Assembly: GCA_045541135.1 (NCBI GenBank)
Contig: JAZQIO010000028.1
Location: forward strand, 32,897-96,896
Origin: Clostridia bacterium
GTDB taxonomy: Bacteria; Bacillota; Clostridia; Monoglobales; Firm-18
Direction of reading: 5' to 3'
DNA length: 64,000 nucleotides
In this document: in pieces, positions 4,338 to 17,571 of the stretch
Layout of the letters: each line of letters starts with the position of its first letter
How positions within the stretch are numbered: the first letter of the stretch is position 1
The notes under the pieces: model-generated
Told to the model about the DNA's origin: nothing
Databases searched by the model: none
The model's input: the letters and a program-made list of their open reading frames with translations, nothing else
Translations under genes and position numbers: made by a program

Positions 4338-4926
4338 AATTGGTGTTTTTGGAGGCTCGTTTAATCCAATTCATAACGGGCACATATATGTTGCTGATAA
4401 AGTGAAAAAAATACTTAATTTGGATGATATCGTTTTTGTTCCTACAGGTATTGCTCCACATAAAGATAACAGTTGTTTTGCATCTAAAGAACATAGGTAC
4501 AATATGGTAAAATTAGCTGTTGAAAATAAATTCAGTGTATCTGACATAGAACTCACAACAGATAAAGTGTGTTATGCCGTTGATACAATGTCAGAAATTA
4601 AAAAGTTATATACAACTGATGATTTGTATTATATTATAGGTGCCGATTCTCTTGTAACATTTATGCAATGGAAAGACCCGTTAAAGTTATTTGAAATGTT
4701 GCATATTGTAGTTGTTGACAGAGAAGGTACTGATATTGATAAAGTTGCTGATGAATATCGACAAAAATATGGTGCTAAAATAACAATTTGTCACATTGAA
4801 GAATATAATGTTTCTTCAACAGAAATACGAGATGCAATAAAAACTACCGGAAAATGTAATGATCTGGTGCCTGAAAAAGTGGAAGAGTATATGAAAAATA
4901 ATAAATTATACACGGAGGATTTATAG
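4321..4926 (+). CDS. nadD: Nicotinate-nucleotide adenylyltransferase NadD
   Basis: The GVFGGSFNPIHNGH (HxGH) motif and an ISSTEIR-like motif (VSSTEIRD) are present. The start may be the ATG at 4330 (MSKIGVFGG), 8 nt after AAGGA. Confidence 0.93.
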   Translation: MIIMSKIGVFGGSFNPIHNGHIYVADKVKKILNLDDIVFVPTGIAPHKDNSCFASKEHRYNMVKLAVENKFSVSDIELTTDKVCYAVDTMSEIKKLYTTDDLYYIIGADSLVTFMQWKDPLKLFEMLHIVVVDREGTDIDKVADEYRQKYGAKITICHIEEYNVSSTEIRDAIKTTGKCNDLVPEKVEEYMKNNKLYTEDL

Positions 4927-5499
4927 GTGGATATTTTAGAAATTGAACAGTGTATAAAGAAAATGACAAAAGAAACTCGTTTTAATCACAGCAAAGGTGT
5001 TCAAAAAACCGCCGGTGAACTTGCAAAACATTATGGTCTTGATGTTGATAAGGCAGAACTTGCCGGTCTTATGCATGATTGTGTGAAAAATCTTCCTATT
5101 GAAGAAATGATGCGTCTTTGTGACGAGTTAGGATGTAAGCTTGATTTTGTTACACAAAGAGAATATAAACTAATACATGCGCCTTTGGGTGCGTATTATG
5201 CAAAAAAAATCTTTGGTGTAGATGATGATGAGATTTTTAATGCCATATACTGGCATACAACCGCAAAGGCTGATATGACTATGTTTGAGAAGATTATATA
5301 CATAGCTGATGTTATAGAACCAAACAGAAAGTATGATATTATAGATGAAATGAGAAAACTTGCCTATGAAGATATTGATGTTGCTATGCTTAAAATTCTG
5401 AATTATACAATAGGTAAACAGTTGGCAGCAGGTAAAATGCTACATAGCGAAACTATAAATGCAAGAAATTTCTTAATTGCAAAAGGGGTAAACATATGA
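4927..5499 (+). CDS. yqeK: HD-domain protein YqeK (bis(5'-nucleosyl)-tetraphosphatase family)
   Basis: HD-domain residues are present (RFNHSKGV ... GLMHDCVK). It holds the conserved position between nadD and rsfS. GTG start. Confidence 0.88.
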   Translation: MDILEIEQCIKKMTKETRFNHSKGVQKTAGELAKHYGLDVDKAELAGLMHDCVKNLPIEEMMRLCDELGCKLDFVTQREYKLIHAPLGAYYAKKIFGVDDDEIFNAIYWHTTAKADMTMFEKIIYIADVIEPNRKYDIIDEMRKLAYEDIDVAMLKILNYTIGKQLAAGKMLHSETINARNFLIAKGVNI

Positions 5500-5852
5500 G
5501 TAAAGAATTAGTAAAGAAAATAGTTAAAGCTCTTGATGATAAAAAAGCGATTAAAATTGATGTTATTGACATTCAGGAACTTAGCCAGATTGCGGATTAT
5601 TTTGTAGTCTGCACAGGTTCGTCAACTACACAGGTTAAAGCACTTGCGGATGAAGTTGAATTTCAGTTGGGCAGTGATATTGAGCATGAAGTTGGTTACC
5701 ATAAGGAAGGTTACGGTTCTGCCGAATGGATTTTGCTTGATTACAAAGATGTTATTGTTCACATTTTCTGTGGGGAAATCAGAGAGTTTTATAATTTGGA
5801 ACACTTGTGGTCAGATGGCAAAGCAGTAGATGTAAATGAATTTTTGGATTAA
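5496..5852 (+). CDS. rsfS: Ribosome silencing factor RsfS
   Basis: 118 aa. DYFVVCTGSSTTQVKALADEV and WILLDYKDVIVHIF are RsfS/IojAP blocks. Confidence 0.93.
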   Translation: MSKELVKKIVKALDDKKAIKIDVIDIQELSQIADYFVVCTGSSTTQVKALADEVEFQLGSDIEHEVGYHKEGYGSAEWILLDYKDVIVHIFCGEIREFYNLEHLWSDGKAVDVNEFLD

Positions 5853-14365: not shown

Positions 14366-15205
14366 ATGAATAACAGAGAGTTAGAAATTATTGCATGTAA
14401 AATCAGACATCATGTTATTAATGCGGTACACTCTGCAAAAGCAGGTCATCCGGGTGGTTCACTGTCTATGGCTGATATTATTACAGAAATTTATTTTGAA
14501 CAAATGAATGTTGATCCTAAAAATCCTAAATGGGATAAGAGAGATAGATTTGTACTTTCTAAAGGACACTGTTCACCTGCACTATATGGCGCTTTGGCTG
14601 AAAAGGGATTTTTCCCTGTTGAAGACATTACAACATTCAGACACACAGGAAGCTATCTTCAGGGACATCCAAGCCTTAAGGATACACCAGGGGTGGATAT
14701 GTCTACAGGTTCACTTGGTCAGGGAATTTCTGCTGCAAACGGTATGGCAATTGCAGCCAAACTAAACGGTGATGATTACCGTGTATATACAGTTTTGGGT
14801 GATGGTGAAATAGAAGAGGGTCAGGTTTGGGAAGCTGCAATGTTTGCTGCTCACTATAAACTTGATAATCTTTGTGCAGTTGTTGACTGGAACGGTTTGC
14901 AGATTGACGGTAAAATTGAAGATGTTATGTCATCACTTCCAATAGATGAAAAATTTGCTGCTTTTGGTTGGAATGTAATTTTAGTTGATGCACACGATTT
15001 TGATTCTTTAAGAGACGGCTTTAACAAGGCAAAAGAATGTAAAGGCAAACCAACTGTATTGGTTGCAAAAAGTATTAAGGGTAAAGATGTATCCTTTATG
15101 GAAAATCTTGCAAGCTGGCATGGTGTTGCACCTAACGATGAACAGCGTGATCAGGCTATTGCAGAGCTTGACAAGAAGTTAGAAGAATTGGGAGGTAAAA
15201 TGTAA
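14366..15205 (+). CDS. tkt: Transketolase, N-terminal (TPP-binding) subunit
   Basis: GHPGGSLSMADI, LSKGHCSPALY and GDGEIEEGQVWEA are transketolase PP-domain motifs. It is the short split form (279 aa). Confidence 0.95.
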   Translation: MNNRELEIIACKIRHHVINAVHSAKAGHPGGSLSMADIITEIYFEQMNVDPKNPKWDKRDRFVLSKGHCSPALYGALAEKGFFPVEDITTFRHTGSYLQGHPSLKDTPGVDMSTGSLGQGISAANGMAIAAKLNGDDYRVYTVLGDGEIEEGQVWEAAMFAAHYKLDNLCAVVDWNGLQIDGKIEDVMSSLPIDEKFAAFGWNVILVDAHDFDSLRDGFNKAKECKGKPTVLVAKSIKGKDVSFMENLASWHGVAPNDEQRDQAIAELDKKLEELGGKM

Positions 15206-16140
15206 TGGCTGATATAATTGCTACAAGAGAAGCTTACGGCAAAGCTTTAGCTGAATTTGGAGATACATATGATATGGTTGTTATGGATGCCGACCTTTCC
15301 GGTTCAACCAAAACAGGTGTTTTTGCAAAGAAATTTCCTGAAAGATTTATAAACTGCGGTATTGCAGAAGGTAATATGATGACTACTGCAGCAGGTATCG
15401 CTACAACCGGTAAGACAGTTTTTGCTTCTACATTCGCTGTTTTTGCATCCGGTCGTGCTTTTGAACAGATCAGAAACTCAATTTGCTACCCTAATCTTAA
15501 TGTTAAAATAGGTGCAACTCATGCGGGTTTATCTGTTGGCGAAGATGGTGCATCACATCAGGCAATTGCCGATATGGCAGTTATGCGTGCGTTGCCAAAT
15601 ATGATTGTTCTTAATCCTGCAGATGCTGTTGAAACAAAATGCGCTATTAAAGCAGCTATTGAATACAATGGTCCTGTATATATAAGACTTGGCAGACTTG
15701 GTGTGCCTGTGATTTTTGATGAAGCAACATACAAGTTTGAAATTGGTAAAGGTCAGCTTATCAACGATGGTGACGATATTACTATTATTGCAACAGGTCT
15801 TATGACAACAGAAGCTATAAAAGCTGTTGAAACATTAAAAGCTGAGGGTGTTAATGCAAGACTTATAAATATTCATACAATAAAGCCTATTGATAGGGAT
15901 ATTATTATAAAAGCAGCAAAGGAAACAGGACATATTGTTACTGTTGAAGAACATTCCGTTATCGGTGGTCTTGGTAGCGCAGTTGCTGAAGTTCTGGCAG
16001 AAGAATATCCTTGCAAAGTGACTCGAATTGGCGTTCAGGATGTGTTTGGTCAGTCAGGTAAGCCTTATGAACTTTTGGATATGTATGGTCTTACAGACAA
16101 AAATATTGTTGCAAAAGTAAAAGAAATTCTAGGTAAATAA
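15205..16140 (+). CDS. tkt: Transketolase, C-terminal (pyrimidine-binding) subunit
   Basis: Contains FINCGIAEGNMM and THAGLSVGEDGASHQ. The start overlaps the stop of the N-terminal subunit (ATG within TAATG). Confidence 0.95.
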   Translation: MADIIATREAYGKALAEFGDTYDMVVMDADLSGSTKTGVFAKKFPERFINCGIAEGNMMTTAAGIATTGKTVFASTFAVFASGRAFEQIRNSICYPNLNVKIGATHAGLSVGEDGASHQAIADMAVMRALPNMIVLNPADAVETKCAIKAAIEYNGPVYIRLGRLGVPVIFDEATYKFEIGKGQLINDGDDITIIATGLMTTEAIKAVETLKAEGVNARLINIHTIKPIDRDIIIKAAKETGHIVTVEEHSVIGGLGSAVAEVLAEEYPCKVTRIGVQDVFGQSGKPYELLDMYGLTDKNIVAKVKEILGK

Positions 16141-16150
16141 TTTTTAAAAA

Positions 16151-16183
16151 ATCCTGTATTGTTAAAATACAGGATTTTTTTTT
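16151..16183 (+). terminator. Rho-independent terminator after transketolase
   Basis: ATCCTGTAT (16151-16159), loop, ATACAGGAT (16167-16175), followed by a run of 9 T. Confidence 0.85.
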
Positions 16184-16190
16184 GCAAAAA

Positions 16191-16218
16191 TGAACCTTTT
16201 TAATTATTTTTTTGTCTA
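16191..16218 (+). promoter_or_regulatory. Candidate ECF-type (autoregulatory) promoter upstream of the sigma gene
   Basis: TGAACC (16191-16196), then GTCTA (16214-16218), with 18 nt between AAC and GTC. This resembles the GAAC...GTCT/TCTA architecture of ECF promoters. It lies 45 nt upstream of the ATG. Confidence 0.3.
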
Positions 16219-16263
16219 TATATGTGAAATAAGTTTTGATATTGAAGGCGAGGAGGTGATGAT

Positions 16264-17535
16264 ATGGATTTGTTTGAAGAATTATTGTCAAAACACAGTC
16301 CTTTGGTAGAAAGATACGTAAAATTCAGATTGCCGGAAGTCGCAGATAAAGAGGATGTAATTCAGGAAATTTACTTTTCTGCATTTAAAAATTTTGGACA
16401 GCTTAAAAATATTAATTCTTTTAAACCGTGGATTATAGGTATTGCAATAAACAAATGCAATGACTGGTACAAAGCTAATGCAAAAAAGTCAGAAATACCT
16501 ATTGATTCGGTGGAAGAAAGCAAACTGATTTATGGACGTTATGGTTTAACAGAATCAAATGAAGTTAAAGAAACACTTGATTTGATGAAGGATAAATATA
16601 GGCAAATACTTGATTTGTATTTTATAAAAGAAATGCAACAGAAGGATATTTCTAAATATTTGTCAATACCATTGGGTACTGTTAAAAGCCGTATTTATAA
16701 GGCAAAACATGAATTTAAAAAAATATATCCGCATCATCCTGACAGTAAGAAGGGAGAAATAAATATGAAAATTATTCCTGGAATTTTACCGGAGTATAAA
16801 ATTGAATATTCGGATAAAAAACCGTTTAATGTAAAATGGGAAGAGCTTATGGGATGGTTTCTCGTACCCAAGCTTGGTGAAAAAATAACCTGGGGAATGT
16901 ATGATATTCCATCACGAAAATGCAATCATATTTATGATATGAAGGTTACCGGCAAGGCAATGGTGCACGGAATAGAGGGAGTAGAGCTTACTGCACGTGA
17001 GGCTAATTATTCCGAAAAAAAGGAGGCAATATACCGCACTTTTGTAGCACAGCTTACAGATACACATTGCCGTTATCTTGCAACTATTCGAAATGACGGA
17101 GATGTAAGAAATTATATAACCTTTCTTGATGAGGAAGCATTTATGCCTAACTGGGGGTTTGGTGAAGATAATTGCGGCAATGAAACTAATCTGAAAGTTA
17201 AAGGAGATATTAAAAGAGAAGGGAATATTGTTACAAGTACTGACAAAGGTTTTCTTCTTGATATTGTGGGAAGATATACAGTTACAATTAACGGCAAAAG
17301 TTATGATACCGTATGTGTTATGGATATTGAAACATATAACTGCGGAGTTGTTTCTGAACAATTTCTTGACAAAAACGGTAAAACAATTCTATGGAGACGT
17401 TTCAATCGTGATGACTGGGCATTTAAAACATATAATAAAAAATGGAGCGAAATGATGCCCGGCAATGATAGATTGATTGTAAACGGAACAACTTATGTAC
17501 AATGGTACGATTGTATAACGGATTATATTTTATAA
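16264..17535 (+). CDS. ECF-type sigma-70 family factor (about 160 aa) fused to a soluble C-terminal domain of about 255 aa with unknown function
   Basis: Region 2 is DVIQEIYFSAFKNFGQL...FKPWIIGIAINKCNDWYK. Region 4 is YRQILDLYFIKEMQQKDISKYLSIPLGTVKSRIYKAKHEF. The remaining 255 aa are Trp/Cys-rich with no TM segment, and I do not recognise the domain. Confidence 0.8.
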   Translation: MDLFEELLSKHSPLVERYVKFRLPEVADKEDVIQEIYFSAFKNFGQLKNINSFKPWIIGIAINKCNDWYKANAKKSEIPIDSVEESKLIYGRYGLTESNEVKETLDLMKDKYRQILDLYFIKEMQQKDISKYLSIPLGTVKSRIYKAKHEFKKIYPHHPDSKKGEINMKIIPGILPEYKIEYSDKKPFNVKWEELMGWFLVPKLGEKITWGMYDIPSRKCNHIYDMKVTGKAMVHGIEGVELTAREANYSEKKEAIYRTFVAQLTDTHCRYLATIRNDGDVRNYITFLDEEAFMPNWGFGEDNCGNETNLKVKGDIKREGNIVTSTDKGFLLDIVGRYTVTINGKSYDTVCVMDIETYNCGVVSEQFLDKNGKTILWRRFNRDDWAFKTYNKKWSEMMPGNDRLIVNGTTYVQWYDCITDYIL

Positions 17536-17568
17536 AAAAAGAACTGTTGGTTCAACAGTTCTTTTTTT
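17534..17568. terminator. Bidirectional terminator between the convergent sigma and SLH genes
   Basis: AAAAAAA, GAACTGTT, loop, AACAGTTC, TTTTTTT. The A-run and T-run can serve both strands. Confidence 0.85.
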
Positions 17569-17571
17569 GAG

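Follow-up and report, generated by a model that had tools for sequence, protein, structure and literature searches.

An extracytoplasmic function sigma factor fused to an all-beta domain of an unnamed family: a candidate self-contained regulatory module of gut Clostridia

Introduction

Sigma factors of the extracytoplasmic function (ECF) type constitute a major class of bacterial signaling systems. Soluble anti-sigma factors are exemplified by the ZAS proteins of the RsrA/SigR type and by the cytoplasmic ASD domains in the SigW-RsiW and SigE-RseA pairs, and the known anti-sigma domains are helical bundles. To our knowledge, few types of fused regulatory extensions are understood, and almost none of these in gut Firmicutes. 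The gene described here encodes an ECF sigma factor that is joined to a C-terminal domain (CTD) of 256 amino acids; it is located on a stretch of 64,000 nucleotides from a Clostridia bacterium (assembly GCA_045541135.1, contig JAZQIO010000028.1, positions 32,897 to 96,896), which is referred to below as the window. In version 2.0 of the ECF classification, 19 groups possess C-terminal extensions (PMC7826278; reviewed in PMC8999054). Those of ECF41 and ECF56 are SnoaL-like, that of ECF42 consists of TPR repeats, and ECF238 and ECF288 carry Cys-rich tails (PMC7826278; PMC8999054), while for ECF262 (SFB89493.1 of Ruminococcus albus) a C-terminal extension with an uncharacterized mechanism is listed (table in PMC8999054).

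An initial annotation of the window had portrayed the gene as an orphan, one-component ECF regulator with an unrecognized soluble extension. Our comparative analysis upholds this description and adds two elements to it, an ECF-type promoter that is predicted to be autoregulatory and a conserved internal ribosome-binding site. The explanation that we regard as the best one, and as fairly probable, is that of a self-contained, one-gene ECF sigma module in which the CTD serves as the cognate regulator.

Results

An ECF sigma factor with an all-beta extension lacking precedent

The gene is a single intact open reading frame (ORF) of 423 amino acids with an ATG start codon (window positions 16264..17535, plus strand, on which all features lie unless stated otherwise). 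It is preceded by the Shine-Dalgarno (SD) sequence GAGGAGG (16250..16256), as read from the DNA, in whose place relatives have GGAGGTGA. Its delineation as a full-length fusion of sigma factor and CTD is based on the ORF itself, on the conservation of the fusion and on a structural model generated with AlphaFold2 (AF2). Sigma region 2 (residues 8-73; 16285..16482) is recognized by Pfam PF04542 (Sigma70_r2; 5.8e-10) and by Foldseek, and sigma region 4 (residues 100-148; 16561..16707) by PF08281 (Sigma70_r4_2; 7.1e-10) and also by PF04545. The protein scores 72.4 bits against the NCBIfam model TIGR02937 (sigma70-ECF; cutoff 42.9), and its sigma part of ~155 amino acids, from which region 3 is absent, is that of an ECF (group 4) sigma-70 factor. 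Domain and family matches hence agree with the sigma factor call of the initial annotation. All Foldseek matches of the full-length model and all sequence matches in the PDB are to ECF sigma factors (e.g., SigW, SigE, and SigH) and are confined to the first ~160 residues; SigG1 (7qh5) likewise matches through the sigma part only. No specific NCBIfam equivalog scored above its cutoff, and the best named models were of the SigZ type. Assignment to SigZ, or to the ECF238 type, was rejected on the basis of the scores (NF007215, 71.8 bits versus a cutoff of 212; TIGR02959, 67.6 versus 168.65) and of the extension, a folded domain of 256 amino acids. In the full-length AF2 model (predicted local distance difference test score [pLDDT] 86, predicted template modeling score [pTM] 0.70), residues 77-98 and 160-168 are disordered.

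The CTD (residues 168-423; 16765..17535) is a soluble all-beta domain of an unnamed family, whose borders follow from the AF2 model and from the alignment of Met168 with the start codons of standalone relatives. The highest Kyte-Doolittle value of any 19-residue window is 0.74, in keeping with the earlier statement that no transmembrane helix is present; Trp and Cys account for 3.1% and 2.3% of the residues. Neither Pfam nor NCBIfam contains a match to the CTD of the window protein or to those of 38 relatives, and no PDB sequence was matched by the single sequence or by a 38-sequence profile. Structure prediction for residues 168-423, which the initial annotation had proposed as a check, gave a confident model when built on a diverse alignment (pLDDT 92.9, pTM 0.91), with ~15 strands and three short helices. 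Foldseek comparison of this model with the PDB returned only weak beta-barrel matches (TM-score ≤0.45), the best being the YmcC-like proteins 3fzx and 4fvs, followed by nitrobindin, YceI and CpeS; no fold match was found in a viral library. The CTD is thus a candidate regulator domain without structural or sequence precedent in the libraries searched. Ten of its residues are invariant throughout the family (F188, E194, H235, G336, R378, R379, N381, W394, W414, and D416).

Conservation of the fusion across species

A search with the CTD alone retrieved 3,698 protein clusters. The best 120, which are 78-100% identical in the CTD, were inspected: nearly all consist of proteins of ~423 amino acids with sigma domains, while the few shorter ones look like fragments. 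When one genome per species was scanned, relatives were present in at least 580 species, the best 80 of which were analyzed, and in 78 of these 80 species representatives the whole 423-amino-acid frame was recovered in one uninterrupted alignment. The best 80 carriers are mammalian-gut Clostridia labeled Lachnospiraceae, Oscillospiraceae, Christensenellales, Monoglobus, and others, with the cultured isolate Acetatifactor muris DSM 23669 among them. Exceptions are L037 (~4502-5768), whose frame is broken near residue 70, and L077 (4932-5768), which matches residues 145-423 only; a pseudogene, an error of assembly or a local split may underlie each of them.

An artefact of assembly, or a frameshift joining two genes, was a caveat that the initial annotation itself had raised, and relatives in which sigma factor and CTD are split over two genes do exist, the closest with ~62% CTD identity (L008). 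Against such an origin of the long ORF, or one by sequencing error, stand the occurrence of the identical or a 94%-identical 423-amino-acid protein on independent contigs, the hundreds of clusters that encode a protein of ~423 amino acids, and the uninterrupted ORF in the 78 species representatives. Since the fusion is intact both in the close clusters and in these species, we consider an artefact to be excluded for all practical purposes.

The CTD is more highly conserved than the sigma part to which it is attached: the mean pairwise identity amounts to 82% for the CTD versus 69% for the sigma part, and the CTD had the higher value in 98.5% of the pairs (75 species). A CTD identity of ~80% is also seen across genomes labeled as different families or orders of the Clostridia (L011-L090), with zero shared synteny. 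This may reflect extreme purifying selection or horizontal spread, and the labels of metagenome-assembled genomes may be unreliable.

The CTD as a separate gene and as a partner of other DNA-binding domains

Among 1.84 billion cluster representatives, we found 397 CTD relatives. The full-length ones comprise ~36 fusions to an ECF sigma factor and ~20 standalone proteins of 250-280 amino acids. Seven standalone genes, which stem from different clades and are 28-62% identical to the CTD of the window protein, were examined in their genomic context, and each of the seven is positioned directly after a gene for an ECF sigma factor of 153-194 amino acids on the same strand; the two genes overlap by up to 11 nt or lie up to 39 nt apart. 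At all four split junctions that we read, the CTD gene has its own SD sequence and ATG codon. With the CTD encoded right behind the sigma factor in these relatives, the partner that seemed to be missing from the window is the extension itself. The fusion evidently arose through the loss of the stop codon of the sigma gene, judging from the arrangement of the split loci.

The CTD is also found on other transcriptional regulators. It is fused to XRE-type helix-turn-helix domains in P0197, in P0208, and in the P0388 group (hhalign probability for P0388, 98.3%) and to Mor-like DNA-binding domains in P0238 and P0149, which argues that the CTD is a portable regulatory module. Together with the seven split pairs, these fusions lend independent comparative support to the predicted regulatory role that the initial annotation had ascribed to the extension.

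Three further observations were made at loci of this wider family. In the split locus L006 (6785-7567), the CTD gene is succeeded on its own strand, 14 nt further on, by a gene for a CN_hydrolase (nitrilase-family) protein, which is possibly co-transcribed with it and was not seen at the other loci. Near the family genes of the distant loci L004 and L217 lie genes for a 550-amino-acid sigma protein with an unannotated extension (L004, 7814-9466, minus strand) and for a 560-amino-acid sigma-TPR protein resembling ECF42 (L217, 175-1857, minus strand).

An ECF-type promoter in front of the gene

An ECF-type promoter with fixed spacing, TGAACCTTT-N13-CGTCTA, is located upstream of the gene at 72 of 74 loci; the fuller motif reads AAAATGAACCTTT-N13-CGTCTATATAA and has the same invariant spacing. 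In the window, the predicted autoregulatory promoter (16187..16223) comprises a −35 element TGAACC (16191-16196), followed by TTT, and a −10 element TGTCTA (16213-16218). It scores 24.9 bits with a position weight matrix (PWM) of the family motif and is the sole match of at least 8 bits in the 64 kb; 19 of 20 shuffled controls contained no match of at least 8 bits, and the best single match in a shuffled sequence reached 9.2 bits. The pattern TGAACC-N16-CGTC is also found in front of the split relative L008 and of the distant relatives L214 and L217, in DNA of 52-66% GC, whereas in the remaining split or distant loci only the −35 element GAACC(TTT) is recognizable and the −10 element differs. 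Positive autoregulation is usual among ECF sigma factors. The presence of an ECF-type promoter in front of the gene predicts that this sigma factor, too, positively autoregulates its own gene.

A scan of metagenomes with the exact motif yielded 120 matches, 78 of which were confirmed by BLAST to have a sigma-CTD gene downstream; ~14 further matches share the sequence of the downstream untranslated region (UTR), giving ~92 predicted autoregulatory sites in total. The other matches lie mostly on high-GC contigs and presumably belong to other ECF systems.

Just past the −10 element, at approximately +1 to +16 of the predicted transcript, most relatives (e.g., L012, L031, and L024) carry the dyad TGAAAC-CGG-TTTCA, variants of which preserve the palindrome (TGAAATCGATTTCA, TGAAAACGTTTTCA). 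The corresponding segment of the window (16222-16238) is degenerate (TGAAATAAGTTTTG). Since the variants keep the palindrome and RNAalifold finds no consensus RNA structure in the 5′ UTR, the dyad is more suggestive of a site bound by a dimeric protein than of a hairpin in the RNA.

One locus departs from the common arrangement. In L123 (4960-10151, minus strand), the family promoter drives two genes for ABC exporters (556 and 696 amino acids); the sigma-CTD gene comes after them, lacks its own promoter and encodes a product that is 59% identical to the window protein. Two ABC exporter genes are also present downstream of the split locus L213, without the promoter motif. We rejected a general link to ABC exporters: they occur in 4 of 82 main-clade loci, and the motif is missing upstream of the L213 exporters.

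PWM searches of the window and of ~0.8 Mb of DNA flanking the gene in relatives revealed no second promoter site, so that no output regulon can be named. This result would be compatible with the CTD itself being the output, that is, an enzyme or a small-molecule-binding effector, with a sigma factor that mainly drives its own gene and no mutual regulation between the two. The many invariant polar residues of the CTD (E, H, R, R, N, D) do resemble an active or binding site, and its weak fold matches are beta-barrel ligand binders and barrel proteins of unknown function. The CTD, however, matches no enzyme family, it is repeatedly fused or adjacent to three kinds of transcription modules, as is typical of regulatory domains, and a positive feedback loop without a brake is implausible. 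We therefore judge an effector of this type to be quite unlikely.

A conserved ribosome-binding site within the linker

Sigma part and CTD are connected by a disordered linker (residues 155-167; 16726..16764; pLDDT <50 at residues 160-168), which in the window contains the SD-like sequence AAGGGAG (16750-16756) followed by the in-frame codon ATG (16765-16767) for Met168. The linkers of the fusion proteins are variable in sequence; they hold, however, a conserved K-G-E-x-x-M motif whose Met aligns with the initiator Met of the standalone CTDs and which at the DNA level corresponds to the pattern AAAGGAG(A)-N7-8-ATG. In each of the 73 fused genes examined (65 distinct sequences), the linker Met codon is preceded at a distance of 5-18 nt by an SD core, which is a 5-mer in 70 of them; among the remaining internal Met codons of these genes, an SD core precedes 47 of 483 (9.7%). 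As the predicted internal start codon, 64 of the 65 distinct sequences have ATG and one has GTG. All genes listed encode the Gly of the KGE motif by GGA, which makes up 33% of the Gly codons gene-wide, and GGAG is retained even where the linker residues differ (HGMEV, EMEI, KEE, NGG). AAGGAG or AGGAAGG also precedes the equivalent ATG codon, by 7-8 nt, in two fusions of a distant clade with high GC content. The retention of the SD core and the GGA codon, and of GGAG despite changes in the encoded residues, points to selection acting on the nucleotides and not on the protein. From this pattern, a free CTD of 256 amino acids (M168-L423) is probably also translated from the same mRNA.

Were the fusion protein the only product, the linker SD sequence and ATG would be either a relic of the former intergenic region, as is to be expected of a fusion that arose through a lost sigma stop codon, or a pause site that aids folding. 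A relic should decay; yet an SD core is present in all 73 genes, the sigma parts of which have drifted to ~69% identity, an ATG or GTG codon stands at canonical spacing in all of them, the GGA codon is used throughout the genes listed, GGAG survives changes in the residues, and the distant high-GC fusions keep the site as well. Production of the fusion protein alone thus appears rather unlikely to us.

Flanking terminators and neighboring genes

The gene is insulated on both sides by the strong terminators that the initial annotation had noticed. Upstream lies the intrinsic terminator of the transketolase operon (16146..16183), a stem-loop (16146-16180; −16.8 kcal/mol; z −5.5 versus shuffles) followed by a T-run. 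Downstream, a bidirectional intrinsic terminator (17533..17569, both strands), identified by folding versus shuffles, is common to the sigma gene and its convergent neighbor, with folding energies of −17.8 kcal/mol on the plus and −17.3 kcal/mol on the minus strand (z −6.2 and −7.2). A simple terminator scanner missed both of them, probably on account of the A/T runs that lengthen the stems.

As annotated before, the upstream neighbors encode transketolase, in the form of two subunit genes, and the convergent downstream neighbor encodes an SLH-domain protein of the NAGPA (phosphodiester glycosidase) type. The transketolase region (14366-16140) is divided into separate genes for the N-terminal and the C-terminal subunit, with the stop codon of one overlapping the start codon of the other at 15205; split transketolase genes are the usual arrangement in Clostridia. 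Across 82 related loci, the neighbor analysis uncovered no conserved neighboring gene. The earlier statement that no anti-sigma gene is nearby is thereby sustained, and the gene can be viewed as a free-standing unit to which the adjoining SLH glycosidase gene is incidental. The hint at cell-envelope signaling that had been drawn from this glycosidase accordingly finds no support.

Two antisense ORFs within the gene (16912-17361 and 16734-16925, minus strand; 149 and 63 amino acids) recur among relatives, at 25 and 22 loci as clustered by the neighbor analysis; we regard them as shadow ORFs of the conserved sense frame and not as genes. The GC content of the gene equals that of the window (33%), on which ground a recent transfer of the gene was rejected. 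No match to the CTD was present in 72,556 plasmids.

Discussion

A model for a one-gene feedback switch

We propose that the CTD restrains or gates the sigma factor according to a cytoplasmic cue, which might be bound at a pocket lined by the invariant residues E194, H235, R378, R379, N381, W394, W414, and D416. The sigma factor would transcribe its own gene and thereby create positive feedback, while translation from the SD sequence and ATG in the linker would supply free CTD, and hence regulator beyond the 1:1 copy provided in cis, which would set the threshold of the feedback loop. The mode of action of the CTD would then be similar to that of the ECF41, ECF42, and ECF56 extensions and of soluble anti-sigma factors, as inferred by analogy and with an unrelated fold. 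That the CTD is a regulator of the sigma factor is a view to which we give more credence than doubt, and we lean towards inhibition. The complete scheme, in which one gene gives rise to two proteins, a sigma factor tethered to a sensor or anti-sigma domain of new fold and a free copy of this domain that tunes the feedback switch in trans, and in which the domain defines an unnamed family of regulator modules in hundreds of species of gut Clostridia and beyond, is put forward more tentatively.

Inhibition is favored by the operon layout of the split relatives, by the positive feedback and by the extra free CTD, while the XRE and Mor fusions favor a co-activator or sensor role. In the latter case, the sigma factor would require the CTD, as a positive co-factor or sensor, for promoter binding, engagement of RNA polymerase or oligomerization; the CTD would be comparable to the TPR extension of ECF42, which is needed for activity, or to the C-terminal domains of XRE-type regulators. 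On XRE and Mor-like DNA-binding modules an anti-sigma role would be senseless; moreover, purifying selection is stronger on the CTD than on the sigma part, and according to reviews, the C-terminal extensions so far known from ECF sigma factors modulate activity (PMC7826278; PMC8999054). Conversely, a sigma gene followed by a translationally coupled CTD gene, in combination with positive autoregulation, is the classic layout of sigma/anti-sigma pairs, and an internal start that yields additional free CTD is more readily accounted for if the CTD is an inhibitor acting by titration. On balance, a positive co-factor strikes us as unlikely, if worth keeping in mind, and we retain the CTD as a probable restraining regulator.

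Several observations weigh against this interpretation. For a contact between CTD and sigma part, the pTM of the full-length model (0.70) is only suggestive. The CTD is all-beta and does not have a known anti-sigma fold, so that an inhibitory role would be one assigned by analogy, and the XRE and Mor fusions fit a general sensor or oligomerization module better than a sigma-specific inhibitor. The searches described above disclosed no second promoter site, and the internal SD sequence may have persisted as a relic or may act as a pause site in translation, alternatives that we consider less likely. The window gene itself deviates from its relatives: its −10 element is TGTCTA versus the family consensus CGTCTA, and the near-invariant His413 of the motif YVHWYDC is replaced by Gln (YVQWYDC; codon 17500-17502). 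In the sigma part, it shares only ~50% identity with the nearest species representatives. By these sequence features, the window gene is a somewhat divergent member of the family.

Whichever way the CTD acts, the candidate regulator family extends over at least 580 species with very strong conservation, and the existence of the same sigma factor and domain in both split and fused form argues for a joint function. The nested internal start, if true, may determine how much regulator is made per sigma factor. Gene, promoter and terminators form one compact unit, for which a cultured carrier exists in A. muris DSM 23669, and the module could serve as an orthogonal switch for synthetic biology.

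Comparison with known systems

The best fold matches of the CTD are the YmcC-like barrels of unknown function 3fzx (BF2203) and 4fvs (BDI_3050), with Foldseek E-values of ~7e-4 to 9e-4; TM-scores of 0.33-0.45 and identities of 7-10% to the CTD set these proteins apart from it. We take them to be exported lipoproteins without a link to transcription.

With soluble anti-sigma factors, the CTD shares its solubility and, in the split relatives, the position directly downstream of and translationally coupled to the sigma gene, in an operon for which autoregulation is predicted. It differs from the known anti-sigma domains in being all-beta and in lacking any match to zf-HC2, RskA, or ASD. A Class I anti-sigma domain (ASD/ZAS), which is helical and often bears an HxxxCxxC zinc motif, was rejected as its identity, given that no zf-HC2 or RsiW-like match was obtained and that the model is composed of beta strands and three short helices.

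As in ECF262, we are dealing with a Clostridia ECF group that has a C-terminal extension and no studied member, and we found no paper on the biology of ECF262 or of the sigma-CTD family. The family may already be catalogued as an uncharacterized group in the ECF Hub, for which ECF262 is a candidate by description only.

Like the extension-bearing ECF groups at large, the protein consists of a sigma2-sigma4 core followed by an extension of more than 50 amino acids, and it is encoded by a lone gene with an ECF-type promoter and no anti-sigma gene nearby. Membership in ECF41, ECF56, or ECF42 was rejected: Pfam detects neither SnoaL nor TPR domains at E-values up to 1, and the AF2 model is all-beta. 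A match to the Cys motifs of the tail-bearing groups is likewise absent. Unlike the extensions of these groups, the one described here is a 256-amino-acid all-beta domain without a close structural relative. Elsewhere it is encoded by a gene of its own behind the sigma gene or attached to XRE and Mor regulators, its conservation exceeds that of the sigma core, and an internal ribosome-binding site is kept in front of it in the fused gene. The new elements are therefore the domain family itself, its existence in split as well as in fused form, its conservation above that of the sigma core, and the nested start site.

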